Positions 14,570 through 42,244 of a DNA stretch of 64,000 nt are shown here, piece after piece. The translations under genes and the position numbers were made by a program. The DNA comes from an uncultured Draconibacterium sp. Its GTDB lineage: Bacteria; Bacteroidota; Bacteroidia; Bacteroidales; Prolixibacteraceae. The stretch's first letter is position 1, and each line of letters opens with the position of its first letter. Location of the stretch: contig NZ_CAXXRE010000003.1 in the NCBI RefSeq assembly GCF_963674925.2, forward strand, positions 2,047,199-2,111,198. Reading direction: 5' to 3'. The notes beneath the pieces are model-generated. The model saw nothing but the letters and a program-made list of their open reading frames with translations, did not search any database and was not told where the DNA came from.

Positions 14570-14646
14570 TCCCCAGTAGCTCAGTTGGTTAGAGCGGCGG
14601 ACTGTTAATCCGTAGGTCGTTGGTTCAAGTCCAACCTGGGGAGCCA
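14570..14646 (+). tRNA. tRNA-Asn (GTT), CCA encoded
   Basis: Full cloverleaf: TCCCCAG/CTGGGGA acceptor stem, GCGGA-CTGTTAA-TCCGT anticodon arm, GTTGG-TTCAAGT-CCAAC T arm. Confidence 0.98.
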
Positions 14647-14655
14647 CCAAAAATT

Positions 14656-14683
14656 AAAGAGGTCAATTTCGACCTCTTTTTTT
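14656..14683 (+). terminator. Hairpin/terminator after tRNA-Asn (also first copy of the junction repeat arm)
   Basis: AAAGAGGTC-AATTTC-GACCTCTTT plus T run. Confidence 0.8.
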
Positions 14684-14741
14684 GTGCCCGGATTTTTGAA
14701 CCCCTTTTAAATAAGTTGATTCCTTTACGCACAAAAGACAT

Positions 14742-17700
14742 TTATTTTAATGCACTTGCGTAGGTTATAAAAGGAATGATATCCCCATTTTTAAAGGAAC
14801 TTGTACCGTCGTATTCTAAAGTTACAATAGGTATACCCGTTATTTCTTCCATCTTCGATTTCATGGCTTCGGTTACCAGTGACGGGCAGCAATACGATGG
14901 ATTTGTTTGCACGAATAAAGCAATATCCGGATAATGCTCCATTAAGTGAATGATTTTCAGTGCGTTTTCAAACGACTCTCCGTTATATGAATTATTCAGG
15001 TTAAACTTTTTCAGCTTTTCTTTGTAAGTTTTTAGCGGTTTGGAAATAGGTTCATGCAAAATTTCATTGAATAGATTTAAATATTTCTCTTCCAGTTGTG
15101 TCGCAATTGAAACAAGAAAATGTTGCAATGATGCTTTCATAAAAAAACCTTGTTTTATTAAGCGGTTATTGGTAGCATAAGCAATAATCTTAATGTATTC
15201 GCTGTAAGGTGTTGTAATTGCTTCACCCCCGTTTTTCTCGATGAATTTTATTAGGTGCTGATTAAACACATCGTTGTCGCGCACATACAAGTCACCAAAA
15301 ATTGCCACTTTGGGTCGTGATTCAGTTTTTAACTCAACCGCCTTACTCCATTCGATTACCTGTTTTAATGCCTCTTCTTTCGAGCTTCCATTCATAAAAG
15401 TTTGATAGAGAAGTTCGATTGCCTTTTTCACTAAAATATCGGTTTGCCCGAGTTGTATTTCATATGGTCTGAGTTTACATTCTATTTTGCGAAGAAATCC
15501 TCCAAACAGAAATGCCAGGTATGAATTAACAGAAGTATTGATTGAAATATCAGCAAAAGTGATTTGCCCGCAATACAATCTCAATTTCCGAAATTCCTCC
15601 TGCTGCTCTGTCAACACTTTCGACATGTAATTGATAAACATACCAAGGTTGCATGAAACCGGAGATTCGATCATCCACAACACTGTATTTGCCGGGTCGA
15701 GTTTGTTTGCCTTAATATAATCGAATGCATTTTGAAGGATAATATTTAAAGGCAAACACTGACCTGAATTTGAATTCAAACTCTGTTTTATCGATTCTTC
15801 TGTGTCGAAAAGAGTATGTGCGTCAATTCCAATCCGCCGTAAATTGGCTTCAAGCAGTTTCGATGCATATTCTCCCAAAGAGGGCAGTAATAGCGTTTTC
15901 CCTTTTAATTCAGTAGCCTGGGTTATCAAATTGTTTGCCGATTTAACCCTTCCATTTTTGCGTGATTCTTCATGCTTGTGAAAATGATTTTGGAATGAAC
16001 GAAGCGCCGCTTCAATACGTGTTTCATAACCTACATTCGAATCGTATTCATCCAGTTGTAATATTAAATACGGTTTTCCGTAAAAATCCATTATTTGCTT
16101 GAAGTATTCAATAACAAACGAATCGGGAGAACATTTAAAGGAAGAAATAAGTACAGGAAATAAATCTTTAGTTCGGGCAACATAGTCTGTCGCGGTAAGA
16201 ATTGCAGCAGCAAATTTCCATTTTGTGGAACTTAAAATTTCACGCAGACTATCGATCTCATTTTCATCTACTTTTAACATATTCTGATAAAAGGTTTTCA
16301 CTCCTTTTTTTGCAAATATTTCCGGAATATTATTATTCATTACAGGTGTTAAAACCGTGTAAGGCCTTCCCAGTAAAACTACTTTCAGGTTTGGATCAGT
16401 TGAAGATATTTTTTGAAATTCATCTTTCCATGCGGTTAATCTTTCCTGTTTTTCGCGTTTGGCCTTGTTGAATGCATTTGAAACGTCAATCAGCGTGATG
16501 CCTGTTAATCCTGCTCTTCGAAGTGATTGAAACAGCTCATTTTTTAATTTCAATTCATTTTGAAGTGAGAAAAGCAAGGGATTAATTATTTTATTTTGTT
16601 TGGCAATTTCATCAATCGAAGCAACAATAGGCGGTGCAAACTGGCTGTAGTAGCAGTACTGACGGCGCAGTTTTTTCGATTTTTGCCGTTCTTCAAGATA
16701 AGTCGGTAAAAATATAAAGTCGGATTTCGGGAGCAGAAATTTTACATGTCCATGAATGGCATTCATCGGAGAACAAAATTCAGCTCCCGAAATTCGTTTC
16801 CCCGTCTTAACAGCATCGCGACAGTTGGCACTGGTAATTGTTTTTATGTGTAGTAAATCAAAAAATCGTTGCCACAAAAACAGGTCTTCAAAAAGGTATA
16901 ATCCAGCCGGAATTCCAATCGTTATTTTAGATTGTTCTGAAAGTGTTGCTTTAAACCGAAACTGTGTATTATACGCTTTTATCAGGTTAAAACCGGAGGT
17001 ATTGTTATCGACAAATTTATTGGAGTCATAATCCCGTCCGCATAAAAATCCGTATGCTTCTTTTTCACCATCCAGTTCTGCAATTTTCAATTTACAATGA
17101 TTGGTGCATAACTCACATGTTTCAGTACGGACAGATATTTCGCTTTTTATAGAGTTTTATTCCCCTGAATTTTGTTTGAATTATCTTTTTATCAAATAAT
17201 TCAAGAGCAACTCCCATGGCACCGGTTAAATGGCAATATTTGGAAACCAAAATCGGTTTTTTCAATTTTTGCTCGAACGCAGCAACCAAAGCTTTGTTTT
17301 TAGCCGTTGCTCCCTGGAAAAAAATTTTATCCCCGATATTTTTTTCAATGGCAACTTTTAAAAGGTAATTTTCACGAACCGAATGTAAAACCGATGCCAG
17401 TATTTCGTTCGTGGAGTAATTGGCATTGAGGTAATGATTTAAATCCCGCTCCATAAAAACAGTACATCGGTCACTGGCCATCGGGGCAATTGTGTGCATT
17501 GCTTTATCCGAATATTCATTCAGGCTTACTCCCAGTTTTTTTGCCTGCTCTTCAATAAAACTACCAGTCCCGGCTGCACATACATTGTTCATCACCGAAA
17601 AAGTAACGCTTCCGTTTTTTAAGGTTGTAAATTTTGAATCCTGCCCGCCAATTTCAATAATGGTATCTACATCTGAATCCAATTCAATGGCGGCCCGTGC

Positions 17701-18950
17701 ATGCGCTGTAATCTCGTCCGGAATAATATCGGCGCCAATTATTTTTCCAGTAAACTTTCGTCCCGAGCCGGTCGTACCAGCTCCCCGAATATTTATTTTG
17801 CGGTTTTTTGTTGAAAATATTTCATAAATGGATTCGAATATAATGCGAACTGCATTTACCGGTTGACCTGAAGTACGCGTATAAAAACCTGCCAGAACAT
17901 TTTTGTTCTCATCCAGAAGAATTGCTTTTGTACTTGTTGAGCCGATATCAACACCTAAAAAAGCATTGTATTTCCGGCTTTTAATTTCCGAATAAATATC
18001 AACTTCAACTTCCGGAAAGTCTTTTACAATTTTAGATTTATAGTTGTATTTTTTAATGAAGTAAAATCAGGATAATCAGATAACTCCAGTTTCAACGGTT
18101 GGTGAAAATAGTTTCTTTCTTTAGTTTCTTTTAGAAGAATATCCTGTGGAGACTCAATACTAAAATCAAGCTGTTCCTTTTTATCATCAATAAGATTAAT
18201 TCCTGCACCAATTGCCCCATAAAGATGAGCATTTTTGCCAACCTCCGGTTTAATTCCGGTAAGGGATTCAATATGACCGGCGACAGCTTTGTTTTGAGAA
18301 ACTCCGCCTGCAAAAATTACGGGCGTGTTAATTTTTGCCTCGTTAAAGAGGGTATCGACAATGTTTTTAGCTAATCCGTAGCACAATCCATCACATATTT
18401 CAGCAAGTGAATAACCTTCCTGCTGAACATGAATAAGGTCGGTTTTAGCAAAAACGGAGCATCGGGATGCAATTTTTGGAAAGTCTCCACTGTTTTGGTT
18501 GGCCAGGTCACTAAAATCGGAAATGTCCTCCAGGTTTAGTCTTTTGGATTGTTGATCTAAAAAACTTCCCGTTCCCGCCGCGCACGATGAGTTTCCTTTA
18601 AATTTTCGGTAGTGTTGTTGATCATCGAATAAAACAAGACCAAATTTTTCGCCACCAACAATTAGTATCGAACCAACGTTTTTATGCAAAAATTTTGAAG
18701 CTGTTATGAATGCAACACGATCATCGTAAACAGCAGTATTTCTAATATAGAAAGGAGTAGACGAAGTTGTTGCTATACCACAAATATTTTTGAGGTTGAG
18801 CGGATTAAGAAGGTTGATCAATTTATTAGCGATTTGGCCTTCATGAAAACCGTATGCCGTTTCCAATATTTCCTTTTTTTGATTAAGGATAGCTACCGAA
18901 ATGGCAACCGAACCGACATCAATCGCTAAATATGTTTTTTCAACGCCCAT
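14742..18950 (-). pseudogene. Acyl-CoA dehydratase activase fusion (two BadF/BcrA-type ATPase domains + DUF2229 + HgdD-like), split by two frameshifts
   Basis: AIDVGS and GVDIGSTSTK ATPase motifs, twice CAAGTGSF, CxxCxxxC at TCELCTNHC; frames join at A6 run (18049-18054) and A5 run (17144-17148); restored length 1402 aa. Confidence 0.82.
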
Positions 18951-19141
18951 AGTGAATTCAATAATTTGAGGAACGTTAAGTTGTAATTAACCAAATTTAC
19001 GGATATATTGCGACTTGGTTATGGATTAGATGCGATCATTTTTATAAGTCCAATAGTAATTTGTACCTTAATCTTTTAAAATCTCTCCTGATTAATCTCT
19101 TTAATTGATATTTTGAGTTTGATTGTAATTCATTCCAAACT

Positions 19142-19301
19142 TTAAATCAGGTTGCAACTTCCAATTGTATGGGGAGCCACACAGGAAAAGAGGTCATAAG
19201 CGACCACTTTTTTTCGTGCCCGAAATTTTGAAAACCTTGCTGGTATTGAGGAGTAACTCTATCGGTTTTGTTGCATATCCAGATAGTACTTTTGGTAAAG
19301 A
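19142..19301 (-). pseudogene. C-terminal remnant of a putative site-specific recombinase overlapping an att-like junction
   Basis: SLPKVLSGYATKPIELLLNTSKVFKISGTKK/(1-nt shift)VVAYDLFSCVAPHTIGSCNLI*; recombinase identity is recall-based inference. Confidence 0.5.
19153..19236 (+). repeat. att-like junction copy J2
   Basis: TGGGGAGCCAC (19170-19180) identical to tRNA 14637-14647; followed by aaagaggtc..gacc..T7..gtgcccg; preceded by ttgcaacttccaa. Confidence 0.85.
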
Positions 19302-19331
19302 TCAGTCCTGAAATATACACATGATGATTTT

Positions 19332-20855
19332 TTAAATGGGTTTTGAGAGTACATTGTGATTATAGGTTAAAGTCTTGTTTGGCAGAAAGTGCCACATTGG
19401 ACCGAGATCCCTTTTTACTTTTTCAATCATAAATTTAGGAATTTGATTTGTTTCTTTTTTTACAAAAGATTGAAATTCGCGTTCTTTATGAAGACTCTTA
19501 AGAACAGATGATAAATGGCTTGCTTTACCTCTGCCTCCAATACTTAATGAAAGAAGAAGTGTAATCCATTTTGGCGCCAACGCTTTATTGGCATTAAATC
19601 GATTATTAATGGCTCTGGCTGAGAAACAATATGTTAATAAATCAATAAAATAGATATAGAACTCTTCCCAGGTATAATTTTTTGGTATAATATTCATTGT
19701 ATGTACCGACATCATATAGTGAAATGGAAAAGGAATTATTCGCTTTTCGGTTTCATATTTAATATTGTTTTTATTGCCTTGCCCAAATATTGACAGCAAA
19801 GCAAATGATGGATAGACAGCGGGAGCAAGATCAATGAATTTCTTGGTGAGTTCAAACGGGGCACTTCCTTCATCTACATCAAGACCAAACATGAAATTGG
19901 TTTGTACCTGAGGGATATAACGTTGTATCATATTAACTTGGTCAGCAATTTTTTTAACCTTCTCAATTCCAAAATTTGAACCTGTTTTTGACTTATTTCC
20001 ATAACCAAACCATGATTCTATACCGGGCATAATCATTTTAAATCCGTTACGATTAAGTCTTTTAATTCTTTCTTCATTCAAGCCCGATAGACTGCATTCA
20101 GCAATGAAATCGATATTGCCAGACGGAACCACAGATTCAATAGTCTCCATAATCGAATCGAATTTGACACCAAAATTTGGATCATACCAGCTAACTCTTG
20201 GATGTTTAATTTTTTTGATGAGAAATTGTAGGTCTTTCTTTATCATTTCCATGTCGAGAGGTTGATACGGAATTTCAGAGTCTACACAGAAATCACATTT
20301 ATAGGGGCATCCAAAACTCCCTAATATTGGCGTTATTTTAATAATATTTAGTGGATTGTGTACTTTTTTAATAAGCTCCCATCTTTCTTGCACTCCTGGA
20401 ATATGAGATGGTTGTGATGACGAAGATAATTGTATCCCAAGTGGAGAATTAATTTCAAAACTGCTTAGCAAATCTTTTATCAAATCTTTATTAGTCAATC
20501 CCAAAACATAGTCAAAATATTGGCGGGCATCATCAGGATACGATCTGGCGTGTGGCCCACCAAGTATAGTTACAATGCCTTGCCTACGGGCATAATTGCT
20601 CAAAGCATAGGCAAGTTGAGCGGTGTAAGTAAAAGAACTGATAAAAACAAGATCCGCTTGATTTGGTATAAGCTTCTGTAAATCTTGTGATCCCGTAAAT
20701 ATAGAATATTCTACATCATGTCCTTCCTCCATACACCATACTCCTATTATTTGCGGCATGATACTAATGTAGTTAGGAAACATAATCCTCCTGTAAAGAG
20801 AATTAGAAGGGCCATTATGAATCAGGTCGATAATACAGATTTGGAGCTTCTTCAT
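19332..20855 (-). CDS. B12-binding-domain radical SAM protein
   Basis: GCPYKCDFC (CxxxCxxC), N-terminal ILGGPHA cobalamin-binding-like segment, YDPNFG, PGIES. Confidence 0.85.
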   Translation of the reverse strand: MKKLQICIIDLIHNGPSNSLYRRIMFPNYISIMPQIIGVWCMEEGHDVEYSIFTGSQDLQKLIPNQADLVFISSFTYTAQLAYALSNYARRQGIVTILGGPHARSYPDDARQYFDYVLGLTNKDLIKDLLSSFEINSPLGIQLSSSSQPSHIPGVQERWELIKKVHNPLNIIKITPILGSFGCPYKCDFCVDSEIPYQPLDMEMIKKDLQFLIKKIKHPRVSWYDPNFGVKFDSIMETIESVVPSGNIDFIAECSLSGLNEERIKRLNRNGFKMIMPGIESWFGYGNKSKTGSNFGIEKVKKIADQVNMIQRYIPQVQTNFMFGLDVDEGSAPFELTKKFIDLAPAVYPSFALLSIFGQGNKNNIKYETEKRIIPFPFHYMMSVHTMNIIPKNYTWEEFYIYFIDLLTYCFSARAINNRFNANKALAPKWITLLLSLSIGGRGKASHLSSVLKSLHKEREFQSFVKKETNQIPKFMIEKVKRDLGPMWHFLPNKTLTYNHNVLSKPI

Positions 20856-20944
20856 GATTTGGAATATGGATTATTCGTGCTGCTACGTTGGATTTTAAAA
20901 AAAGGTTGCAAAAAACGGTACCGACAAGAACAATCAAATGATAT

Positions 20945-20981
20945 CGTGTTGGCATGGGGAGCAATGTAATAAGAAGTAGTC
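20945..20981 (+). repeat. Degenerate att-like junction copy
   Basis: gttggcatggggagcaat; minus frame reads TSYYIAPHANTI, similar to SCVAPHTI of J2. Confidence 0.45.
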
Positions 20982-21300
20982 GGGAATGGTTGAAGAAAAC
21001 CCGTAATAAAAATGGTGATACGGTACAAAACTAACATGCAAATGGTTTAGCGAAGCGTTTCAACCTTAAATCTACTTTTGGTCTTATTAATCTCGTTCAG
21101 TCGGTATAGTTTATTAAAACTTCAGTCCCTTGTGCTCATCAGAAATGTTGATGGATGCATTGGTAATTAATGCATTATCCTTAAATTGCTAAAAAATCAT
21201 ATCAGCATTCTTATTGATAGAACATTCTTTTAAAAAGTCATAATTTGATTAAAAATTCCCGAGTGAACAGTGTTTATACACGATTATAAAAATATTCGTT

Positions 21301-23676
21301 ATGATAAAAAATATTTTAAAAACGGCGATCAGACATATTTTTAAGTATTTTGGATACAGCTTTTTAAATATTATTGGTCTTACTCTGGGGATTACAAGCT
21401 CGCTCTTTTTGATAATTTATGTTGCCGATGAGCTTAGTTACGATAATTATCACGAAAAAGCTGATCGCATTTATCGTGTTTCTTCAACAATAACGGAACC
21501 CGATGACCAATTTACATGGATTGTTGCCCAGATTCCGTTTGGACCCCAGGTTGCACAAGATTATCCCGAAGTTGAGTCTTTTGTACGATTTATAAATATG
21601 CCCCGTCAATTGTATAAGTATGAAGACAATGAATATAACGAGGATAATTTCTATTACGCAGACTCAACACTGTTTAGTATTTTCAGTTATAATGTAATCG
21701 AGGGAGATGCAATAGCTGCTGTATCAGAACCCAATAAAATAGCACTTACTGAAAAAGTAGCGCTAAAATATTTTGGGAATACTAATGCCATCGGGAAAAC
21801 ATTAACTGCCGGAGCTAATTCTTATGAGGTTGTAGCAATACTTGAAAATGTTCCGTCCAATTCTCATTTTCGTTTTGATGCTATTGCGGCCCGAAATAAT
21901 CTACCGAAACAATTGGGCAGTTGGGGGAATTTTGGCGTTTTTACCTATTTGTTATTGCCTGATAATATTGACGTAAAAGCATTTGAGACGAAACTTGACG
22001 ATATGTACGATAACTATATGAAGTCGATATTTGAAGCAATGAATATTACCATAAAATATAGTTTAGAGCCATTAAAAGATATTCATCTATATTCAACTAA
22101 TGCTAGCGAACCAGAACCAACCGGAAGCATAACTTATGTATATATTTTTGGGATAGTGGCGTTTTTTCTGGTATTAATTGCGGCAATGAATTATATGAAC
22201 CTGGCAACGGCACGGTCGGCCAAAAGAGCGAAAGAAGTTGGTTTAAGAAAAGTAGCAGGAACGAGTAGGGGACCACTACTTTTTCAGTTTCTTGCAGAAT
22301 CTGTTTTTCTCACTTTGGTTTCACTTCTTTTTAGTATTGTTCTTGTTATTATTCTATTGCACCAGTTCAATATTGTTGCAGGTAAATCATTCGATCTTAG
22401 TATTCTTATAAGTCCGATATTTTTAGCGGCACTTTTTAGTATTGTTTTAATTATTGGTATTCTTGGCGGGTGTTATCCTGCATTTTATTTATCTCGATTC
22501 AACCCTGGCGCTGTACTTAAGGGCGAAGTAACTCAGGGAGCTTCAGGTAGCTCTTTCCGAAAAGTTTTGGTGGTTATTCAATTCTCCATTTCTGTGATAA
22601 TGATTATTTGCACCTTGGTTGTCTATAATCAATTGAATTTCTTAAAAACAATGGATCAGGGATTCGATCAGGAGAATGTAATTAGCTTAAGACTGGACGG
22701 AGAAATGATAAATAAATACCCCGTTTTAAAAACATCATTACTAAATCATCCGGGGATAAAATATGTTAGTTCAACAAATACACCTATTGGTGAGGGATCG
22801 GGTAAATTAGTATTCAATGTTGAAACTAACCAGGGAATGATGGAAAAGGGAGTAAACTTTAGTGTTGTTGACCACGATTTTATCGATGCACTTGGAATTA
22901 AAATTTCTGAAGGAAGAAACTTTAGACAGGATATGCGATCGGATACACTTCAAGCCGTTATTGTTAATGAAACCTTTGTTAAACGTATGGCCTGGAGCAA
23001 AGCACTTGGAAAAAAAATACAGTTGGGACAAAATGCAGGTGCTTTAAATGCAAGAGTTGTTGGTGTTATGGCAGATTACCATCAAACCGGTATGTATAAT
23101 GAAACGGAATCGCTGCTTCTTGCCTACCGAATTAATAACAACATCGTATACATAAAAATTAATGAAGACGAAACAGATAAAACACTTAGTCATATCGAAA
23201 CTCAATGGAATGAGGTGTTTCCTGATAAGCCGTTTGAATATACTTTTTTAGAAGAAAGGTTTAATAATCAGTTTGAAGCAGACGAAAAGAGGGGCGTTAT
23301 TTTTACTTTATTTACTATTCTCGCCATAATAATAGCATGTTTGGGGCTTTTTGGCTTGGTATCGTATATGGTTGAACAAAGAACAAAGGAAATTGGAGTA
23401 AGAAAGACATTTGGTGCAAATGAAATTTCAATTCTGGAACTAATTATTAAGTATTTCCTGAAGCTTGCACTTATTGCGATTATTATAGCATTACCAATCG
23501 CCTATTACTTTATGAGTAGATGGTTGGAAAACTATGTGTACAGAACAAAAATTAGTATTTATCTTTTGATTATTGCAGCATTATCAACCGTTCTCATTTC
23601 TATAATAACCATAAGTTTCAAAGCGTATCAGGCTGCCAATCTTAATCCCGCTGAGTCAGTAAAAATGCGATCGTAA
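21301..23676 (+). CDS. MacB/FtsX-like ABC transporter permease (duplicated architecture)
   Basis: NYMNLATARSAKRAKEVGLRK, VLVVIQFSIS, EQRTKEIGVRK; 791 aa; no ATPase gene adjacent. Confidence 0.9.
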   Translation: MIKNILKTAIRHIFKYFGYSFLNIIGLTLGITSSLFLIIYVADELSYDNYHEKADRIYRVSSTITEPDDQFTWIVAQIPFGPQVAQDYPEVESFVRFINMPRQLYKYEDNEYNEDNFYYADSTLFSIFSYNVIEGDAIAAVSEPNKIALTEKVALKYFGNTNAIGKTLTAGANSYEVVAILENVPSNSHFRFDAIAARNNLPKQLGSWGNFGVFTYLLLPDNIDVKAFETKLDDMYDNYMKSIFEAMNITIKYSLEPLKDIHLYSTNASEPEPTGSITYVYIFGIVAFFLVLIAAMNYMNLATARSAKRAKEVGLRKVAGTSRGPLLFQFLAESVFLTLVSLLFSIVLVIILLHQFNIVAGKSFDLSILISPIFLAALFSIVLIIGILGGCYPAFYLSRFNPGAVLKGEVTQGASGSSFRKVLVVIQFSISVIMIICTLVVYNQLNFLKTMDQGFDQENVISLRLDGEMINKYPVLKTSLLNHPGIKYVSSTNTPIGEGSGKLVFNVETNQGMMEKGVNFSVVDHDFIDALGIKISEGRNFRQDMRSDTLQAVIVNETFVKRMAWSKALGKKIQLGQNAGALNARVVGVMADYHQTGMYNETESLLLAYRINNNIVYIKINEDETDKTLSHIETQWNEVFPDKPFEYTFLEERFNNQFEADEKRGVIFTLFTILAIIIACLGLFGLVSYMVEQRTKEIGVRKTFGANEISILELIIKYFLKLALIAIIIALPIAYYFMSRWLENYVYRTKISIYLLIIAALSTVLISIITISFKAYQAANLNPAESVKMRS

Positions 23677-23709
23677 ATAGGAGTATTTGAAGGAATTTAT
23701 TCGCAAGAT

Positions 23710-23854: not shown

Positions 23855-23875
23855 GAAATTTTAACTGTTGTGCAG

Positions 23876-32410: not shown

Positions 32411-32434
32411 ATAATATTTAATAATCAATATTAA

Positions 32435-34349: not shown

Positions 34350-34850
34350 ATGAAAAAAAATTACACAAACAAACAAATGAGTTTTTTGCGAATGTTATCA
34401 GTTGTTATGTGCTTAATGCTAATTGTTCCGGCAATGGCAAAAGCACAGGGTAAATCTAATTTTGCAGGCAGTTGGGCTTTAAATGAATCAAAAAGTAAAT
34501 TGGGCGATAGCGGCCGCCGATTTGGAGGTGGCGACTTTGTTGTAAAACAAGAGGCCAATCTTCTTTCAGTTGAAAGATCGTTTAACGATCAGAGTTTTAC
34601 AAGTAAATACACCCTTGATGGGAAAGAAAGTGTAAACTCTTTTGGAAGAGGTGAAAGCAAATCGACAGCCAACTGGTCTGATGATGGAAAATCGCTAACT
34701 ATCGTAACTAAAATGAATTTCAACGATATGGAAATAAAATCGACCCAGGTTTGGACACTGAACGATGCTAAAACGCTTTCAATTGTATCAACCAGGCCAA
34801 ACAGGGACGGAGGTACCGTAACAACCACATCGGTTTACGACAAAAAATAG
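34350..34850 (+). CDS. Hypothetical secreted protein
   Basis: Signal peptide ending AMAKA-Q; NFAGSWALNESKS; beta-rich; followed by strong terminator. Confidence 0.75.
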   Translation: MKKNYTNKQMSFLRMLSVVMCLMLIVPAMAKAQGKSNFAGSWALNESKSKLGDSGRRFGGGDFVVKQEANLLSVERSFNDQSFTSKYTLDGKESVNSFGRGESKSTANWSDDGKSLTIVTKMNFNDMEIKSTQVWTLNDAKTLSIVSTRPNRDGGTVTTTSVYDKK

Positions 34851-34865
34851 ACTCAAGCAGAAGCT

Positions 34866-34899
34866 AAAAAGAGACCTATGATACATAGGTCTCTTTTTT
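34866..34899. terminator. Bidirectional intrinsic terminator
   Basis: aaaaagagacctatg-ata-cataggtctctttttt perfect stem. Confidence 0.85.
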
Positions 34900-35153
34900 A
34901 TCCCTAATTCTTTATTCAGCTCTGAGTAATACACTCTTTAAACATGCTAGTCCAGTTCGTTGTTTTCGTCGTCGGCAGAAGAAACGCCTGCGAAAGATTG
35001 TGCTGTTCTTCACGAATCGTTTATACCGGCTGCAACACGCAAGGTCGATTCAACTATAATTTATGTGGCACATATGGTTGCCATTTGGTTGATCGGTTCG
35101 CTTTTATCATTGAAGGCTAAACCGGAAGTTCGTAGAACCCGGCAACTGATTAT

Positions 35154-36302
35154 TCATCGATCAATAGTATTTAGTGTGTTTTTTTGTCTGTATTCAGTTG
35201 GCGTTAATCCCGTATGTTTTTTGAATGCCGTGTTAAACGACGATTTGGAGTTAAATCCTACTTCGTATAAGATTTCCAAAACGGTGTATTCTTTTCGGTC
35301 GGTAGAAGCAAGTAATTCCATCGCTTTTTCAATTCTGTACTCATTAACAAAATCAAAAAAGTGTTTGTTGAGGTGGTGGTTGATCAAAATCGAAAGTTCG
35401 CGTGATGAGATTTGGGTTTTTTCAGCCAGGGTATGTAGTGTTAACGTTGCATCAAGAAACGGTTCTTCTTCTTTCATATATTGATTAACACGCTCAGCCA
35501 GTTTGTTGTTTTCCTCTGCCGATTTTAATGTTAAATCACCGGAATTCTGCTTTACCAACTTTTGTACCGAGGGTTGTGCTTCGGTCTCGTCGATAAAAAG
35601 TTCGGGCGATCGTAAACCAAGGATGATAAGCCAGCAAAACAGAATTAAAATAGCTGTTATTACCACGTACGAGATAAATGAAAAACTCTCGAAATGAAAA
35701 ACCCACCGGGTAATTATATTTACCATCGATAAGGAATAAAGCACGGCAACAAAAAGAATTAGATTTGATATATAACCATATCTGTTGGTGTTTGTGTTGG
35801 AATAGTTTTCAAAGAAAATTTCTTTGTGCTTTTTTAAAAGGCGGTATGAAAAATACAAATACAGGAAAGTCTGCAAATACAAAACGGCGTAAAAAAACAG
35901 TCCAACAATTCGTTCAATTTCCTCCGTCACACTTCCTTTTGTGTATTCAATAATAAGCAGGGAAAAAACAACGCCGAGAAGTAAAAAAAAAGGTAAGGTA
36001 TGCCAGAAGTCCTTTCCCTTTAAATTGTAGCCCGGGAACAACGAAGTTTTTATGTGTAAATACAAAGCCGGTGCCGCCAGGTAAATCAGGAGTTGTAGAA
36101 ATGTCGTAATGTTCTCCGACCAGCGGTTTAAAATGAAATCGGCAAAAAAATCCAGAACATTATAGGCCAGCAACAGGATAAAAATGGCGATAAAGTAGTT
36201 GCTTAACTTTTTCCCTTCATTATTAAATAGCAGGTAAATGGCAAACAGAAATGCCTGAAATCCGGCAAGTAATTCGATTGCATTTAAGAACGTAATTTCC
36301 AT
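35154..36302 (-). CDS. Membrane-anchored (about 7 TM) AraC family regulator
   Basis: Hydrophobic N-terminal two-thirds; FLDATLTL, FFDFVNEYR, ILYEVGFNSKSSFNTAFKKHTGLTP. Confidence 0.9.
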   Translation of the reverse strand: MEITFLNAIELLAGFQAFLFAIYLLFNNEGKKLSNYFIAIFILLLAYNVLDFFADFILNRWSENITTFLQLLIYLAAPALYLHIKTSLFPGYNLKGKDFWHTLPFFLLLGVVFSLLIIEYTKGSVTEEIERIVGLFFYAVLYLQTFLYLYFSYRLLKKHKEIFFENYSNTNTNRYGYISNLILFVAVLYSLSMVNIITRWVFHFESFSFISYVVITAILILFCWLIILGLRSPELFIDETEAQPSVQKLVKQNSGDLTLKSAEENNKLAERVNQYMKEEEPFLDATLTLHTLAEKTQISSRELSILINHHLNKHFFDFVNEYRIEKAMELLASTDRKEYTVLEILYEVGFNSKSSFNTAFKKHTGLTPTEYRQKNTLNTIDR

Positions 36303-36366
36303 TTAGTCAATATTTGCTTCATACAATTATACAAATAATTGAAGATTGTATTAAATGGATACGCTT

Positions 36367-37068
36367 CTAGCTCAGGAAGAAAAATATGTGCTCCTGTGCC
36401 CAGTTGGTAATGATACGTTCTTTATCAAGAAAAATCATCGTAATTCCAAATACGTCGTAAAAACCATGTGTAAGAACCAGTACCCAAAGGTTTTTTTGAT
36501 TTTTGTAGAAAATCGAACTAAATAGCAGTGCCACAAATCCGGTGGTAATTATGCCCGAAGCTCCCTGATACAAATGCGCAAAACCAAATGCTAAAGATGA
36601 AATAAGAATTGCTGCTGCCCATGCCGGCTGACTGTTGCCAAAAATACGGGCCAGTTGTTTAAGCATGTAACCGCGATATAAAAATTCCTCGCCAAACGCG
36701 GCGAAGATCCACATTATGGCCAAAAAGACAAGGTAGTTTTGCCAGTTTCCTTTTAAGCCTTCGAAGTTGCTTAAATCGGTAGCACCATAAAAATATTCGA
36801 TGACGGGTTGAAAAAGAAAGTCGTTTGCAACGATGATGAGAATGGTATATAAAATGGCTTTGAGAACGGTTTTTACAAGCGGATTTTTTTGAATTGAAAA
36901 AAACGACCAGTCCCATTTTACCGCCCAGGCAGTGACTAAAACGATTACATATCCCAGGATAGTGCCATAATTGCTGGTAGCAATTGATAAGGTTAGAATA
37001 ATGGAAATAAATGTTAGAATTACGGCCGGTTGCGTAAGAAAAGTTGCGGCTTTTTGTCTTGCTTTCAT
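36367..37068 (-). CDS. CPBP (CAAX/Abi) intramembrane metalloprotease
   Basis: GEEFLYRG, FGFAHLYQG, HGFYD motifs. Confidence 0.9.
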   Translation of the reverse strand: MKARQKAATFLTQPAVILTFISIILTLSIATSNYGTILGYVIVLVTAWAVKWDWSFFSIQKNPLVKTVLKAILYTILIIVANDFLFQPVIEYFYGATDLSNFEGLKGNWQNYLVFLAIMWIFAAFGEEFLYRGYMLKQLARIFGNSQPAWAAAILISSLAFGFAHLYQGASGIITTGFVALLFSSIFYKNQKNLWVLVLTHGFYDVFGITMIFLDKERIITNWAQEHIFFFLS

Positions 37069-37074
37069 TTTTTA

Positions 37075-38367
37075 CTAGTTAAAGGTTACCGATGCATATT
37101 TAAAACTGATTATCATTTCATCAAATTGTTTAATGTAATCTTGTCCAAAGTTTCCGTGAAAATTATTTTCCGCACCTCCAATATCTTCAATGTGCAGGCG
37201 AACGCTGTCAATTTGGGCCGCTGAATCTGCAACCTTTAAATTCAGCTTGTCGATTATATAACCTTCAAACTCAATAATACCACCGCCACTTCCGGCAGTA
37301 AATTTTTCTTTCTCAAAATTTCGTTCAACCTGGTTTTTATAGTCTTTATAAAATTGTGGATACAACGATGTGGTTGTGGCTCCTGTATCAAAATTAAAAC
37401 GCAAAGTATCGCCGTTATATTCGGCAGCAATAATCGGCATCAAACCATCCAACGCAAAATTATTGTACGCGTATTCTACCGGATTTTTCGGCACAAAAAT
37501 CTGGTTGTCTTTACTCACCCGAATTTCATCCATGGCTTCAATAACCGGAAATCCAATTGCTCCGTTTATATAATAATCGATTTGCGGAAAAGAAAGGTCC
37601 TTGTCGTCGAGTACCAAAAAGAAAACATTCTTAAAAATAATACCGGCAATGGTGAGTTCGGGCGCAATTGCTATGTCGCTTTTAACGCGTAAACCGGTTG
37701 CAGCAGTTACATAAAAATCGGCCTCTGTTATTTCTAAATTCAGTTTTTTTGCCAGCGACCGAACCATCACCGAAAAGTTGGCGCCGGTATCAAAAAGCAG
37801 GTTTTTGGTTGAGTCCCCAAAACTTACATCGATATTAAATAAGCCCACTTTATCCTTTGTCATTGGAATCAACGCATCAGCGGTTTTAACAATTTCCTGA
37901 CGGGGAACATCTTTTAATGCCTCCCAAATTTTTATTTCATTTTGCAGGTTTTCTAATTCTGATGAATCGTTCAGTGCTGCAAAATTGTTTAATATAAATT
38001 CACTGGCTTTTGCGGTCTCTGAATATTCGTACAGATTTACATGGTTTAAAAGTTTTGTACTGTACAGTTCGTTAAGCATCGTATCGGTAAGTGAGGCACC
38101 GTGTTTTTCGAGTAGTTCATCAATGGCCTTGTTCGATTCTTCTGCATTATTAAATACATTGCTGATTAATGCGCTGTAGTAAAGTTTATGCGTTTCTGAA
38201 AGCTGATCGATATTTTGATTGTAGGTTTCTTTGAGTTTGAAAAAGTCGGAAACTTCAATTAAATCTTCCAGCTTGTTCAGTACCTGCTGATTGGATATTT
38301 TGGTAGTCGATATTCCACAGCCAAATAAACTGGCAACGATAATAAGTATTGATAGAATTCTTTTCAT
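37075..38367 (-). CDS. Lipoprotein with two retropepsin-like aspartyl protease domains
   Basis: Lipobox LFG-C; LLFDTGA and FNFDTGA catalytic motifs; GAIG and GNFG closing motifs. Confidence 0.85.
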   Translation of the reverse strand: MKRILSILIIVASLFGCGISTTKISNQQVLNKLEDLIEVSDFFKLKETYNQNIDQLSETHKLYYSALISNVFNNAEESNKAIDELLEKHGASLTDTMLNELYSTKLLNHVNLYEYSETAKASEFILNNFAALNDSSELENLQNEIKIWEALKDVPRQEIVKTADALIPMTKDKVGLFNIDVSFGDSTKNLLFDTGANFSVMVRSLAKKLNLEITEADFYVTAATGLRVKSDIAIAPELTIAGIIFKNVFFLVLDDKDLSFPQIDYYINGAIGFPVIEAMDEIRVSKDNQIFVPKNPVEYAYNNFALDGLMPIIAAEYNGDTLRFNFDTGATTTSLYPQFYKDYKNQVERNFEKEKFTAGSGGGIIEFEGYIIDKLNLKVADSAAQIDSVRLHIEDIGGAENNFHGNFGQDYIKQFDEMIISFKYASVTFN

Positions 38368-38373
38368 GGTATT

Positions 38374-39048
38374 TTAGTCTTTTAATTTTAATGAATGGCG
38401 CAATGCCTCCTGAAGTTCTCTGTTTTTATCCAGTGCTTTTCTGTAGTGATTATTGTTTTGTTGAATAAGGGAAATTACGCCAAGATACATATTGGTAAAT
38501 TCCAGAGATTGATAACTTGCTTCATTTACAAATTCCTGCGATAGTAAATTGACGGTTTTGTATAAAACAGGAAACCCGTAATTATCCATATGTTTTTGGT
38601 GAAACTGCTCCACATTCTTTATCTCATTCAGAAAAGTGTAATACGAACTAATTTTCTCCTTTAACTGATAATCTGAGATCAAATTCAGATTTCCACTGTT
38701 GATAATGTCTTCATAGGTATCGTTCCCGGCCGACAACCATTCGATGTAGATAATTTCAGTTACAATCTCGCGTGCCTGGTCTTCGTTAAGAGGCTTATTA
38801 ACCAGTTCTGTTTCTTTTAAAATGGCAATTAATTTGTCAGATTTTAACTGACTACTTGAAATAAGCGAATCGATTTCATTTTCATTATTCTGAACGTCTC
38901 TGTAAAAACTGTTGAGGTATTTATATTCCAGCTTTTTCTCAGCAGCATTTTCACGCCAGTTATTCAGAATAAATCCGGCGGTTACGCCAATAAATACTAC
39001 CAGTAACTCTAAAGTATAATGCCACTTGTTGGTTCTATTCTTGCTCAT
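38374..39048 (-). CDS. DUF6090-like membrane protein
   Basis: YTLELLVVFIGVTAGFILNNWRE..E..YL; start ATG 39048. Confidence 0.7.
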   Translation of the reverse strand: MSKNRTNKWHYTLELLVVFIGVTAGFILNNWRENAAEKKLEYKYLNSFYRDVQNNENEIDSLISSSQLKSDKLIAILKETELVNKPLNEDQAREIVTEIIYIEWLSAGNDTYEDIINSGNLNLISDYQLKEKISSYYTFLNEIKNVEQFHQKHMDNYGFPVLYKTVNLLSQEFVNEASYQSLEFTNMYLGVISLIQQNNNHYRKALDKNRELQEALRHSLKLKD

Positions 39049-39313
39049 TCTGTTTTTATTTGAAAACAAATGTGCTTCAAAAAACGAAGCTGTGCGACCG
39101 AATAAATAAAGTCGAACGCTTTTGGTCGTGATATTTTTAAAGAAAATTACAGGAAAGTCATTAAGAAGAAACAAACAGATAGTAATGCACAAGTACAAAA
39201 TGATATTTTAAATTGATAAATTGAATGCGAGTTTTTTATTCAAACACAGTTTTTAAGTAGCTTTGTGTTATTAGAAACAAGATGAACAATTTTATTCATC
39301 AAAATAAATAACA

Positions 39314-40300
39314 ATGAACAAACTAAAACCTATTATTTTATTGATTGCAATTGCACTAACGGCTTTTGTTCCGGTGCAGGCACAGCGCGTTGAAAGCGAC
39401 TCGCCATTAATTGGCAAGTGGGATTTAACTATTAATATGACTCAACAACAGATCGAAAATCTCGGTCTTTTTCGACACGGTTTAATGGCTTCCGACGGTT
39501 TCCCCGGATGGCTTATGGTTAAATTATCAGGTTTCTCTACTTTAACCGGCTACTATGTTGGCTACGAGGGAAGTGCCCGTCCAATTGCCGAAGTCGTTTA
39601 CGATGAAGCTACGGATAAATATCATTTCACCATTCCGCCGCAATGGATGGATATTGATGATCTTTATTTTGAGTTTTCGCTAAAAGACGATAAACTTACA
39701 GGCTATCAAATGCTCGATGGTAATAAGCTGGAATGGACAGGTGTTCGGGCTCCATCACTTAAAAGAACTGAACCGCCAATTTGGGGAAATCCTATTGAGA
39801 TGATTACCGAAAACATGGAAAAATGGGTTATTCCGCAGAACAACAAATTTCAGATGATTGATGGTGTAATGGTTAACACTGAGTCGGGCGGTAACCTGGT
39901 TAGTATTCAGAAATTTGAGGATTTTAAACTTCACGTTGAATTCCGTTATCCGGCAGGAAGTAACAGTGGAATTTATCTTCGTGGCCGTCACGAATTGCAG
40001 ATTGAAGATTCAAAAGGAAGAACTGACGATGTGAGTATTGGTGGTATCTACGGGTTTATCGCTCCGGCAGTTTATGCGGCTAACGCACCGGGCGAATGGC
40101 AGACTTATGACGTGACACTTGTTGGGCGTCATGTTACAGTTTTGCTGAATGGAACAGAAGTTATTTCCAATCGCCCTATTCCCGGAATTACAGGTGGCTC
40201 GTTGGATAGCAAAGAAGGAGAACCTGGCCCATTTCAGATTCAGGGGGATCACGGACCGGTGGAATTCCGCAAATTTACCGTTACTCCGGCGGTTAACTAG
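39314..40300 (+). CDS. DUF1080 (3-keto-glycoside hydrolase/eliminase-like) secreted protein
   Basis: FEDFKLHVEF, NSGIYLRGRHELQI, GGIYG, GEWQTYDV, LQGDH-like IQGDHG. Confidence 0.85.
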   Translation: MNKLKPIILLIAIALTAFVPVQAQRVESDSPLIGKWDLTINMTQQQIENLGLFRHGLMASDGFPGWLMVKLSGFSTLTGYYVGYEGSARPIAEVVYDEATDKYHFTIPPQWMDIDDLYFEFSLKDDKLTGYQMLDGNKLEWTGVRAPSLKRTEPPIWGNPIEMITENMEKWVIPQNNKFQMIDGVMVNTESGGNLVSIQKFEDFKLHVEFRYPAGSNSGIYLRGRHELQIEDSKGRTDDVSIGGIYGFIAPAVYAANAPGEWQTYDVTLVGRHVTVLLNGTEVISNRPIPGITGGSLDSKEGEPGPFQIQGDHGPVEFRKFTVTPAVN

Positions 40301-40336
40301 ATTATGTGCTAAATATTCCAGAACATAAATTTACTT

Positions 40337-40366
40337 AAAGAGAGGCCTTTTCGGCCTCTTTTTTTT
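40337..40366 (+). terminator. Intrinsic terminator
   Basis: agaggcc-tttc-ggcctct followed by T run. Confidence 0.75.
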
Positions 40367-40474
40367 CTGAAAGTCCCCATCTTTTTATGTGTATTGCCGT
40401 TTGAGTTTCGTCCGGGAGAACCATCTGGCTTCGATCTGCTTTCTTCGCCGGACGATTTCCTTTTGTCATTTCAT

Positions 40475-40633
40475 CCCGGCGCTACGCACCGGGTTATTCA
40501 CATTAGACGCTTCCAGCGTCATAAAAACTTGCAATTGCAACATTGCAGATCAATAAACTCATCTTAATTTTGTAATTCAGCTTAATATCCCGAAGGGATA
40601 AAATGTGACTAACCTCGGGTGAAACCCGGGGTT
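40475..40633. repeat. Inverted pair of bipartite REP-like elements
   Basis: Hairpins at 40475-40493, 40506-40520, 40586-40600, 40611-40633; linker GGTTATTCACATT on plus and GGTTAGTCACATT on minus. Confidence 0.7.
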
Positions 40634-40880
40634 GATGTGCGGTAATTTAAAGGCGCAATCAGTAAGCTGTTCAATGCGCAATCGTTGTGTGCGCCTTGTA
40701 ATCTGGTCATTTTTATGAAATGCGTTTAACAGACTTTACTTTCATTCATGTTGGTGATTCCCGTGAATCATGATTGTTTTGTGCTATTCGGAAAAAGCAC
40801 GCTTCCTTAAATTCGAGTCAGACAAGGAGGGATTTCTATTTTTGCTAACTTACAGCACTAAACCAATAAAACGTAAGACA

Positions 40881-42029
40881 ATGTTGAAATCTTCTAAACT
40901 TTTCCTGCTGTCCGGATTAATGCTCATCACATTTTCGCAATGTTCAAATAAAACCGAAAAGTCGGTTAAGTTTTTGCTCCCTTTTACAAAAAATGCAGAA
41001 GTAAATCCGTGTTTATTGCCAACTACTAATCGCAGCTTTGTTTGTCCGGTGCGCCAAACGGAAGTGCTTTGGGAAGAAAAAGATGTTTTTAATCCCGCAA
41101 GTGTGGTAAAAGGCGACACGCTTTTTTTACTTTATCGTGCCGAGGATGTGCTGGGTAAATATCACGGAACTTCGCGTATTGGGCTGGCGTACAGTCTAGA
41201 TGGTTATCATTTTGAAAAATACAATGAACCGGTGTTGTTTCCCGATAATGATGAACTGAAAAAGTTTGAGTGGGAAGGAGGATGTGAAGATCCGCGGGTT
41301 GTGGAAGATCAAAATGGTGTTTATTACATGACTTACACGGCATATGACGGCGATAAAGCGCGTTTATTTGTGGCAACTTCAAGTGATTTGCGGCAATGGA
41401 CCAAACACGGTTCGGTATTTAAAAAAGCCGGAAACGAATATGTTGACATGTGGTCGAAATCGGGTTCAATATTGTGTCGCGAGGAAAACGGAAAAATGAT
41501 TGCCCAAAAAGTAAACGGTAAATACTGGATGTATTGGGGCGAGTCGAATATCTACATGGCAACTTCCGACAACCTGATTGATTGGAATCCTATTTTAGAA
41601 ACCGATCCCGATAAAATGGTGATTGATAAAATGCGCAACTACACCGTTCCGTTTAAGATTTTATTTTCAACGCGAAAAGGAAAATTCGACAGCGAATTAG
41701 TTGAGCCCGGTCCGCCGGCATTGTACACCGACAATGGATTTATATTCATTTACAACAGTAAAAACAGCCCCGACTTTGGAGACAAGAATCTGGCGCAAGG
41801 CTCTTATGCAGCCGGACAAATTCTTACCGATAAAAACGACCCGACAAAAGTGCTGGATCGCCTGGATAATTATTTTATCACTCCTGATCAACCGTTTGAA
41901 ATAACCGGACAGGTAAACAACGTGTGTTTTGTTGAAGGACTGGCACATTTTAAAAATAAATGGTTGTTGTATTATGGTACGGCCGACTCGAAAATTGCGG
42001 TTGCTGAATCGGGATCAGTTGATTTTTAA
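40881..42029 (+). CDS. Glycoside hydrolase family 130 protein, lipoprotein
   Basis: DVFNPA, LLYRAED, SRIGLAYS, GCEDPR, MTYTAYDG, WSKSG, VEPGPP, VCFVEGL, YYGTADS; FSQ-C lipobox; start ATG 40881. Confidence 0.88.
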   Translation: MLKSSKLFLLSGLMLITFSQCSNKTEKSVKFLLPFTKNAEVNPCLLPTTNRSFVCPVRQTEVLWEEKDVFNPASVVKGDTLFLLYRAEDVLGKYHGTSRIGLAYSLDGYHFEKYNEPVLFPDNDELKKFEWEGGCEDPRVVEDQNGVYYMTYTAYDGDKARLFVATSSDLRQWTKHGSVFKKAGNEYVDMWSKSGSILCREENGKMIAQKVNGKYWMYWGESNIYMATSDNLIDWNPILETDPDKMVIDKMRNYTVPFKILFSTRKGKFDSELVEPGPPALYTDNGFIFIYNSKNSPDFGDKNLAQGSYAAGQILTDKNDPTKVLDRLDNYFITPDQPFEITGQVNNVCFVEGLAHFKNKWLLYYGTADSKIAVAESGSVDF

Positions 42030-42173
42030 AGTATCGCTGATTTGGGAAATCAGCATGTTGTCTTTATGATATAGATCGGCGTGTTCGATAAACTTTACTT
42101 GCAGTTGGAAACACCGCTTAAAGAAAGTCTTCGAACCAAAGAAATCTGGTTCTGTCATTCAAAACAAGCTATT

Positions 42174-42244
42174 TTGTAATTCATGGTACGGTAATGGCGT
42201 GATCGTTTTTTAACAATTTTCAACCTCGTTTTGTGCCCGGATTT
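42174..42244 (+). repeat. Degenerate att-like junction copy upstream of the gsh operon
   Basis: caattttcaacctcgttttgtgcccggattt vs caatttcgacctctttttttgtgcccggattt at 14664-14695; minus frames read NPGTK/EVEN and ITPLP. Confidence 0.55.

Follow-up and report, generated by a model that had tools for sequence, protein, structure and literature searches.

Probable tandem accretion of integrase-less cargo modules at the tRNA-Asn gene of an uncultured Draconibacterium

Genomic islands at tRNA genes have been defined by an intact target tRNA, a direct repeat of its 3′ end displaced to the far end of the island, and a tyrosine integrase gene (PMC4383910). The present work concerns a 64,000-nt window, i.e. 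the whole stretch of DNA analysed, from an uncultured Draconibacterium sp. (Prolixibacteraceae, Bacteroidota; genome of 5.8 Mb, 41% GC, referred to as G000). About 28 kb of this window, from 14.6 to ~42.3 kb, are likely to represent a hotspot for integration at the tRNA-Asn 3′ end that has been filled by tandem site-specific accretion of mobile modules. The modules are separated by junctions of ~105–175 nt, each composed of a left arm, the 7-nt core GGGGAGC and a right arm with a terminator; the tRNA-Asn gene shares the core and the right arm. Measured against the above definition (PMC4383910), the locus displays an intact tRNA and displaced copies of its 3′ end, which are diverged pseudo-tRNA ends and not exact repeats. 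A tyrosine integrase inside the island is lacking in the window and present at the same tRNA in three related genomes (G002, G012 and G031).

Several described systems resemble this arrangement. [quoted passage not shown] As in the ICESt1/ICESt3 case of Streptococcus thermophilus, a single target gene end is occupied by a tandem series of elements that have kept their attachment (att) sites but no genes for integration and transfer, with chimeric internal att sites stemming from integration beside a resident element, and integrase decay in older elements is seen here in relatives. Modules 1, 2/3 and 4 of the window agree with the description of CIMEs, being bounded by core-bearing junctions and carrying cargo genes alone, without integration or transfer genes. 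The present array differs in its Bacteroidota host and its tRNA-Asn target, in cassettes down to 0.75 kb in size, holding one toxin-antitoxin pair and a ~32-nt site, which hardly look like decayed ICEs, and in one conserved pseudo-tRNA left arm found in ~100 junctions together with several right-arm families. Tycheposon islands of Prochlorococcus (10.1101/2020.12.28.424599) are likewise tRNA-anchored; with each further integration the older elements move inward, partial tRNAs and broken integrases lie dispersed through the island, and the cargo is niche-adaptive or defensive. In contrast, the window holds neither a tycheposon-type tyrosine recombinase nor a replication module, its repeats are a specific diverged pseudo-tRNA and not plain partial tRNAs, the host belongs to another lineage, and the integrases seem to belong to another clade (the Bacteroidota Arm-DNA-bind_5 type).

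According to McMurdie et al. (2011; PMC3146451), the ssrA islands of Dehalococcoides are arranged in tandem at a single-copy small-RNA gene, have strain-variable cargo and are bounded by direct repeats of that gene's 3′ end. Their target, however, is the tmRNA gene. Each of these islands reportedly carries its own integrase. NBU1 and NBU2 of Bacteroides use a tyrosine integrase and a common core of 13–14 bp at a tRNA 3′ end, and bring their own integrase, mob gene and oriT. NBUs are not known to form arrays of integrase-less cassettes. Integrases with the architecture Arm-DNA-bind_5 + SAM_5 + Phage_integrase are seen in relatives of the present organism; the window itself is devoid of an integrase (no search for a mob gene or oriT was made), and the core measures 7 nt in all junctions and up to 24 nt in the element of G031. 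With integrons and clusters of attC sites lacking integron-integrases (CALINs), the array has in common small, promiscuous, recombinase-less cassettes that are rich in toxin-antitoxin genes in relatives, a conserved site at the cassette end, and one anchor. Unlike those systems, it has no IntI in the window, its left arm is not a folded attC site, and its sole hairpin is a plain terminator. Its anchor is a tRNA 3′ end, the cargo lies in either orientation, and each cassette begins with a terminator, with no common promoter. Nor was a large serine recombinase found, in the genomes searched with the Resolvase and Recombinase domains, together with att half-sites bounding the cassettes, as in staphylococcal cassette chromosome (SCC)-like systems. 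The array is thus set apart from known systems by small discrete cassettes, one ~32-nt pseudo-tRNA site serving many cassette types, and cassette-owned terminators.

The anchor is the single tRNA-Asn gene among the 48 tRNA genes of the genome. Its last bases (14638–14644), comprising the acceptor 3′ strand and the discriminator base, constitute the common core GGGGAGC, which starts again at 19171, 28380 and 30400, always on the plus strand. In all four copies the core is followed on the plus strand by a spacer, a GAGGTC/GACC hairpin, a T-run and a TGCCCG-like (TGCCCGGATTTTTGAA-like) arm. The terminator hairpin AAAGAGGTC...GACCTCTTT with its T-run is bidirectional and strong, ranking among the top terminator-like sites of the region in a terminator scan. 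A repeat finder returned a 56-nt family of four co-oriented copies (14645–14700, directly after the tRNA; 19176–19231; 28386–28441; 30404–30459) and, immediately to the left of it, a 38-nt family restricted to the three internal copies. The left arm aATCAGgTTGCAACTTCCAACTGtCA is common to these three and missing at the tRNA, and the segments 14654–14683 and 28395–28424 are 100% identical over 30 nt. The GC content of the array is 33–40%, compared to 43–46% in the flanks and 41% in the genome.

When nhmmer was run on the 5.8-Mb genome with a profile made from the three internal copies, it recovered these copies (E = 3e-28, 3e-26 and 6e-26) and the tRNA copy (E = 5e-14), the best unrelated locus having E = 0.22. 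The pattern of core plus hairpin has exactly four matches genome-wide, all of them at the tRNA-Asn locus, as compared to 218 occurrences of the bare 7-mer GGGGAGC. A generic terminator family or a family of repetitive extragenic palindromic (REP) sequences is thereby ruled out, and the repeat is exclusive to this locus, which is the outcome that a preliminary description of the stretch, made from the sequence alone, had required of such a check. That description had reported the co-oriented repeat at the tRNA and three internal sites, and a left arm confined to the internal copies, both of which the searches bear out. Weaker copies that it placed at 20955 and ~42200 yield nothing at E ≤ 0.1 with a family profile of 255 positions built from 82 junctions (nhmmer --max, i.e. 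no filters), 20955 being a bare 7-mer. The five junctions and modules it counted reduce to three certain internal junctions; its 1.8- and 7.4-kb modules are one 9.2-kb block, and its last "11.8-kb module" is a composite of several blocks.

An exact-pattern scan for the left arm plus core, covering one genome per prokaryotic species, displays 61 stretches, nearly all from Prolixibacteraceae and related metagenome-assembled genomes, with Draconibacterium, Maribellus, Mariniphaga, Mangrovibacterium, Tangfeifania and other Prolixibacteraceae represented. Unique left-arm/core copies in Prolixibacteraceae amount to 101. Within an array nearly all copies share one orientation and, where the tRNA-Asn gene is on the stretch, lie downstream of it and co-linear with it; one genome (G007) has at least 6 junctions over 39 kb, and Maribellus mangrovi FJH33 also has an array. 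The distribution at genus level is patchy: the motif, allowing up to 3 mismatches in 26, occurs in 16 of 61 sampled genomes, and a reversed control pattern gave 0 matches.

Sequence conservation falls immediately after GGGGAGC. The right arms of the 101 unique left-arm copies belong to type A (57), type C (21), type D (4) and an integrase type (4), or are singletons (15). These right-arm families are mutually unrelated and nearly all open with an intrinsic terminator; the window contains type A. Behind 12 distinct true tRNA-Asn genes, the right arms are of type A (5), type C (4) and integrase type (3). With types A, C and integrase found behind the tRNA end and behind the left arm alike, the two are interchangeable left partners of one set of right arms, joined at one nucleotide position. 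The resulting pattern of B-O-P′ together with P-O-P′ is a prediction of reciprocal site-specific recombination at a 7-bp core, whereas homologous recombination within the arms predicts otherwise. Judged by the sequences, the switch right after GGGGAGC therefore bears the signature of site-specific recombination. A right arm that begins with a terminator makes sense for DNA landing directly after a tRNA gene.

Two other readings of the junctions were considered and rejected. The attR sites of G031 and G002 carry a type-A arm, on which basis this arm could be taken as the native sequence downstream of the tRNA, making the junctions attR-type (P-core-B′); types C and integrase, however, also follow the tRNA and the left arm. 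Type-A arms carry a second AGGTTGCAACTT motif distally; a crossover there is at odds with the window, in which the motif is not preserved. The AGGTTGCAACTT motif is a possible arm-type binding site.

The left-arm consensus reads GGTGGTAATTCACACCAAACTTTCACAAATTAGGTTGCAACTTCCAACTGTCAGGGGAGCCA; in the module model it is given as TTAGGTTGCAACTTCCAACTGTCA, a diverged copy of the T-arm and acceptor end of the tRNA. The last 30 nt of the left arm align with AGGTTCAAGTCCAACCTGGGGAGCCA of the tRNA. Since the same small insertions relative to the tRNA are found in all copies, the left arm is best read as a propagated pseudo-tRNA end and not as a set of independent decay products. No RNA fold (-0.86 kcal/mol) and no covariation were obtained for it (RNAalifold, 30 sequences), as expected for a DNA site. 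Where it is carried by a cassette it can be as short as ~32 nt, abutting the stop codon.

Some unusual arrangements were seen at junctions of relatives. Split nhmmer hits reveal five loci in which the type-A hairpin is broken at the same point by an insertion of ~45 nt (Table 1). On contig 500 of G010 (L014/L066, 240–342), an inverted pair of left arm and core, 45 nt apart, stands directly after a complete junction, the right arm of which runs straight into a second left arm as an "empty cassette" of 130 bp. On contig 2 of the same genome (L008, 7034–7102), the sequence in front of a type-A arm is ...CCTAATCGGGGGAGCCA, matching neither the left arm nor a tRNA-Asn end; this type-A arm lies 1.6 kb from a tRNA-Leu(gag) gene.

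When arrays were cut at the cores and the pieces compared, whole cassettes were found to recur core to core, with conserved length and at different array positions. An MNT/HEPN toxin-antitoxin cassette of 763–778 bp consists of a type-C arm, two genes and a left arm starting 5 nt past the stop codon; in 3 genomes it adjoins the tRNA, whereas Maribellus mangrovi and one other genome have it flanked by two left arms. A YoeB cassette (749–802 bp) is present in 4 genomes of different labelled genera, at 73–90% identity and with different neighbours. The PadR-PspC cassette measures 2020 bp in the window (28386–30406), where it is third in the array, 1987 bp in G009, where it is first and tRNA-proximal, and 1988 bp in locus L071, where it sits between two cores (identity within this cluster, c3, 78–81%). 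Cargo recurring near junctions is of a typical accessory kind and includes nucleotidyltransferase and YoeB toxins, PIN/HTH pairs, Schlafen-AlbA_2, Fic and AAA_14/DUF4143 proteins, hybrid kinases, AraC regulators and 3-keto-disaccharide-hydrolase-domain proteins. The 3-keto block is found downstream of 8 junctions across the family. In G018 it comes after the tRNA with one small block between them, in G002 it stands behind a junction, and in G007 a left-arm/core copy is ~100 nt away from it. A second tRNA-Asn locus, on contig 45 of G012 (L009, 6339–12353), continues with a TOTE conflict-system AEP primase-helicase gene interrupted by IS21, a Schlafen-AlbA_2 gene, and then PIN/HTH, YoeB and ADH cassettes.

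The same locus was compared among relatives, one genome per species. The left flank (PdxA, M17 aminopeptidase, Ni-SOD and the tRNA) is kept throughout the genus, and the content 3′ of the tRNA varies by genome. In the closest species (G009; 91% flank identity) the tRNA arm leads directly into the PadR-PspC block; 14.7–28.38 kb of the window are missing, the gap extending exactly from the tRNA arm to junction 2, and so is the AraC-OsmC block (30.4–32.29 kb). G018 has only one small block or open reading frame (ORF) and the 3-keto block ahead of the right flank. In G002, a 23.6-kb integrase-bearing element adjoins the tRNA and is followed by AraC-OsmC, with junctions on both sides, the 3-keto block and a protease block, an order unlike that of the window. 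Identities of modules and flanks are discordant: the PadR-PspC block (module 4) is 78–81% identical to that of G009, as against 91% for the flank, and AraC-OsmC is 90% identical to that of G002, as against 80–85% for the flanks. No empty tRNA-Asn site was found among the compared genomes, and synteny to the right of the array holds in the closest relatives only. The right-flank operon of ATP-grasp, GCS2 and ABC genes (42373–48384) is present in G009, G018 and G002 and was not found in G007, G008 or G012; because it is confined to the former three, the variable region may reach beyond 42.3 kb.

Integrases occur at this tRNA in relatives. An intact tyrosine integrase of 397–405 aa is encoded on the plus strand, ~330 nt after tRNA-Asn, in G012 (contig 43), G002 (at the syntenic locus) and G031; its domains Arm-DNA-bind_5, Phage_int_SAM_5 and Phage_integrase make up an architecture known from Bacteroides integrases. 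The element in G031 spans 34.6 kb, its far end being an exact 24-nt repeat of the tRNA end plus a type-A arm; 3.3 kb beyond this end there is a left-arm junction. In five further loci, the integrase-type arm follows the left arm, and the integrase is truncated (L035, L043) or gone (L050, L056, L094). Intact integrases are thus seen in 3 of 3 tRNA-proximal and 0 of 5 displaced copies, a small set of copies that are not independent; such a pattern is what entry of new elements at the tRNA and decay of the older ones should produce.

These data suggest the following mechanism. A module would consist of a right arm opening with an intrinsic terminator, the cargo, the left arm and GGGGAGC. As a circle, it would present an attP site of left arm, GGGGAGC and right arm, which a tyrosine integrase would recombine with the same 7 bases at the tRNA end or at an earlier junction. 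The tRNA would be left intact, with termination now provided by the newcomer's terminator, older modules would be displaced distally, and left arm-core-right arm junctions would remain between modules. The arm at 14645–14761 is read as the P′ end of module 1. The proposed scheme builds on features that can be seen in the sequences themselves, namely the anatomy, the sharp switch point, the interchangeability of partners, the recurrence of cassettes and the integrase elements at tRNA-Asn in relatives. The preliminary description had arrived at the same explanation, that is, P arm, core and P′ arm left by repeated integration at one tRNA, with cargo modules devoid of an integrase, and it has withstood the comparison of module order, given that junction-bounded gain and loss and a different order are seen in G009, G018 and G002.

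A number of observations weigh against accretion by site-specific recombination. No recombinase gene is present within 14.6–42.3 kb or elsewhere in the window: PF00589 has no match in the window, Pfam displays no integrase domain in any ORF of 14.7–46.6 kb, and no recombinase is among the flanking genes, upstream (PdxA, M17 aminopeptidase, Ni-SOD) or downstream (ATP-grasp, GCS2, ABC). The closest homologues of the tRNA-Asn integrase in the window's genome are 39–42% identical and located at tRNA-Pro, tRNA-Leu and tRNA-Lys, the best one (42%) at tRNA-Pro. In G031 and G002, what closes the intact integrase element is a true tRNA repeat and not the left-arm variant. A metagenome scan for a joint of left arm, core and integrase-type P′ arm with an intact integrase gave one contig, again without integrase. 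No gene family recurs beside the junctions as a candidate for the missing recombinase, the largest neighbour cluster covering 8–9 of 103 junctions. The left-arm copies were collected by searching for the left arm, so that much of its measured conservation is ascertainment. The distal half of the array (32–42 kb) is devoid of recognisable junctions. Finally, the absence of 14.7–28.4 kb in G009 is equally compatible with a RecA deletion between the 56-nt direct repeats.

Regarding integrases elsewhere, members of the Arm-DNA-bind_5 type adjoin tRNA-Pro(tgg), tRNA-Leu(cag) and tRNA-Lys(ttt) in G000 (C5:1345028, C5:30829 and C3:2309223), hence this genome has other occupied tRNA hotspots. Other genomes have integrases of the clade seen at tRNA-Asn in relatives beside tRNA-Thr and tRNA-Met too, and G008 and G015 have more distant ones at tRNA-Asn; with one clade at several tRNAs, target choice is not readable from identity alone. 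Three equal-scoring copies of an element with three tyrosine recombinases in a row are located at C3:3102209–3105016, C5:26082–28889 and C5:1347603–1350410 of G000. As to serine recombinases, six-frame searches with the Resolvase domain (PF00239; G000, G007, G012, G010 and G035) returned none in G000, G012 or G035, and those with the Recombinase domain (PF07508; G000, G007, G012, G010 and G033) none in G000, G007, G012 or G033. The sole serine-recombinase matches are a 219-aa resolvase gene on an unrelated contig of G007 and a 79-aa fragment in G010.

The alternative that survives best, although we consider it unlikely, does without a site-specific step: junctions would be portable homology blocks of ~60–240 bp, by which cassettes are gained, lost or swapped through RecA after DNA uptake or conjugation. 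The tRNA arm and the right arm of junction 2 are 89% identical over 56 nt and share a perfect 30-nt block, which is enough for an occasional homologous deletion or Campbell-type insertion. An integrase is absent from the 39-kb array of G007 as it is from the window, and the loss of modules 1–3 in G009 fits a repeat-mediated deletion. However, this alternative leaves unexplained why right arms of at least 5 unrelated families, each family with a different terminator, are all joined at the same nucleotide after GGGGAGC, why the left arm can be only ~32 nt long and abut a stop codon, and why integrase-bearing elements use the same core. Homologous recombination between junctions probably contributes to losses; the common switch point is beyond its reach.

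Far less probable is a functional RNA or terminator family, or a set of tandem tRNA-Asn remnants, without any mobile DNA. A strong bidirectional intrinsic terminator is part of every junction, and the left arm resembles the T-arm and acceptor end of a tRNA. However, the 4 copies in 5.8 Mb all lie at one locus, and junction 1 is flanked by two minus-strand genes, so that its plus-strand terminator serves neither neighbour and terminates nothing. In Rfam, the tRNA is the sole match and the junctions match no known RNA family, in line with the above-mentioned lack of fold and covariation. Moreover, the left arm displays the same insertions and deletions versus the tRNA in ~100 copies across genera, and no tRNA 5′ half is found anywhere. 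The least credible proposal, a companion idea to the preliminary description based on related minus-strand peptides across the junctions, takes each junction for the leftover tail of a serine-recombinase gene reading across the core on the minus strand, and fails on the absence of any Resolvase or Recombinase domain from G000 and G012 (only the unrelated resolvase in G007), on minus-strand cargo genes that end before the junction hairpin, and on recombinases at the site in relatives that are tyrosine integrases on the plus strand.

Under tandem accretion by an integrase, the array in this genome is probably a currently immobile fossil, because it contains no integrase, the rest of the genome has no cognate one, and decay has reached part of the junctions and turned one cargo gene into a pseudogene. 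Signs of decay include 1, 3 and 7 mismatches out of 26 in the left arms of the three internal junctions, lost distal junctions, the pseudogene, insertion of a miniature inverted-repeat transposable element (MITE), and a lyase fragment in module 2/3. The earlier suggestion that the junctions could be served by a recombinase in trans is hence unlikely to apply to this genome now, considering the 42% identity of the closest homologue at tRNA-Pro, the mismatches and the frameshifted cargo. That each element had lost its recombinase agrees with 5 of 5 integrase-type joints in relatives; it may not extend to the type-A cassettes of the window, which may never have had an integrase. In these, and in type-A and type-C cassettes generally, no trace of lost mobility genes was seen (no mob gene or oriT search having been made).

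The features of the locus are compiled in Table 1.

Table 1. Features of the tRNA-Asn locus in the window, with the hairpin insertions in loci of relatives in the last row.
Feature	Position	Strand	Description	Basis
tRNA-Asn(GTT)	14570..14646	+	anchor, attB side	ARAGORN; Rfam 74 bits
Type-A right arm after tRNA	14645..14761	+	hairpin AAAGAGGTC-AATTTC-GACCTCTTT, T-run, TGCCCGGATTTTTGAA	nhmmer E=1.4e-16, profile positions 59-161; terminator scan
Module 1	14762..19118	-	4.5 kb core to core; one cargo gene, CoA-enzyme activase (2x BcrAD_BadFG + DUF2229)	Pfam; tblastn
Junction 1	19119..19293	+	pseudo-tRNA 3′ left arm, core 19171-19177, type-A right arm	nhmmer E=1.4e-38
Module 2/3	19294..28323	.	9.2 kb, no internal junction	Pfam; repeat search
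B12-binding radical SAM	19332-20855	-	in module 2/3	
MacB/FtsX permease	21301-23676	+	in module 2/3	
Relic of lyase gene 3′ end	23700-23857		158 nt, in module 2/3	
NmrA-like	23876-24826	-	in module 2/3	
Hybrid histidine kinase-receiver-AraC	25279-27438	+	in module 2/3	
189-aa ORF	27718-28287	+	in module 2/3	
Junction 2	28324..28445	+	best-kept left arm (1/26 mismatch), core 28380-28386, type-A arm	nhmmer E=5.3e-29
Module 4	28446..30365	+	discrete 2.0-kb cassette; 147-aa ORF, PadR regulator, PspC-domain protein	Pfam
Junction 3	30366..30527	+	decayed left arm (7/26 mismatches), core 30400-30406, type-A arm	nhmmer E=1.2e-19
AraC(ExsA_N) + OsmC block	30528..32285	+	right junction lost in window	Pfam
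Blocks without recognisable junctions	32286..39123	.	lyase, 166-aa ORF, AraC, Rce1-like protease, aspartyl protease, 274-aa ORF	Pfam
Beta-eliminating lyase	32435-33883	-		
AraC	35154-36302	-		
3-keto-disaccharide-hydrolase-domain gene block	39207..40305	+	1.1 kb; hairpin relic after block at ~40338-40370	
MITE-like 425-bp repeat	40359..40783	.	inserted in array between 3-keto block and GH130 gene; not part of junction system	
GH130-family gene	40770..42029	+	absent from same position in G009, G018, G002	Pfam
Possible decayed terminal junction	42160..42310	+	half hairpin AACCTCGTTTTGTGCCCGGATTT, then left-arm-like stretch	by eye; not significant by nhmmer
~45-nt hairpin insertion (relatives)	L063 6596-6755 (= L009 14596-14755); L048 6267-6424; L059 3575-3721; L044 7170-7318; L030 3722-3851			split nhmmer hits

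Module 1 contains the activase gene (14760–18944, minus strand), which is spread over three frames with shifts near 17145 and 18050 (tblastn versus a 1460-aa homologue of G001), which points to a sequencing error or to a pseudogene. In G001 and G007, the homologues sit at other loci without junctions and are therefore uninformative on cassette mobility. In module 2/3, the intergenic segment 23700–23857, beside the NmrA-like gene, repeats the 3′ end of the beta-eliminating lyase gene (32466–32623) at 89% identity and looks like a recombination scar; in G009, the counterpart of the lyase gene is located after the PadR-PspC block. The blocks at 32286–39123 are present in G009 and G002, interspersed with other insertions. 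The MITE-like repeat has ~10 near-full copies in the genome at 88–95% identity, and many in G018 and G009. At the distal end (42160–42310), a decayed half hairpin, TGCCCGGATTT and a left-arm-like stretch were seen by eye as a possible relic of a junction; the resumption of synteny with G009, G018 and G002 at 42274 is the sole independent support for it.

For this genome, the practical message is modest: the region 14.6–42.3 kb should be annotated as an accreted accessory island that is partly decaying. Tandem islands at tRNA genes are already well known; the unusually cassette-like form with a short conserved pseudo-tRNA site appears to be new. A literature search found no paper on such arrays in Prolixibacteraceae, nor any on a very short conserved pseudo-tRNA site that bounds ~100 small cassettes devoid of recombinases in marine and sediment Bacteroidota of several genera. 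The finding raises the question why the tRNA-Asn end is repeatedly used. Only tentatively, and with doubt prevailing, we propose that the left arm plus GGGGAGC (~32 + 7 nt) may be the minimal site of a living, family-wide, integron-like capture system, in which integrase-free cassettes of 0.75–10 kb with their own terminators would be inserted, excised and shuffled at tRNA-Asn by a tyrosine integrase acting in trans from a resident element. The cargo of such a system would comprise toxin-antitoxin pairs, defence genes, regulators and carbohydrate-active enzymes. If true, cassette capture would have been solved independently a third time, in addition to integrons and SCC-type systems. Classical integrons are rare in Bacteroidota. 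Cassettes that are still mobile would provide this phylum with an integron-like gene capture and exchange, and the compact pair of site and integrase may serve as a possible genetic tool.

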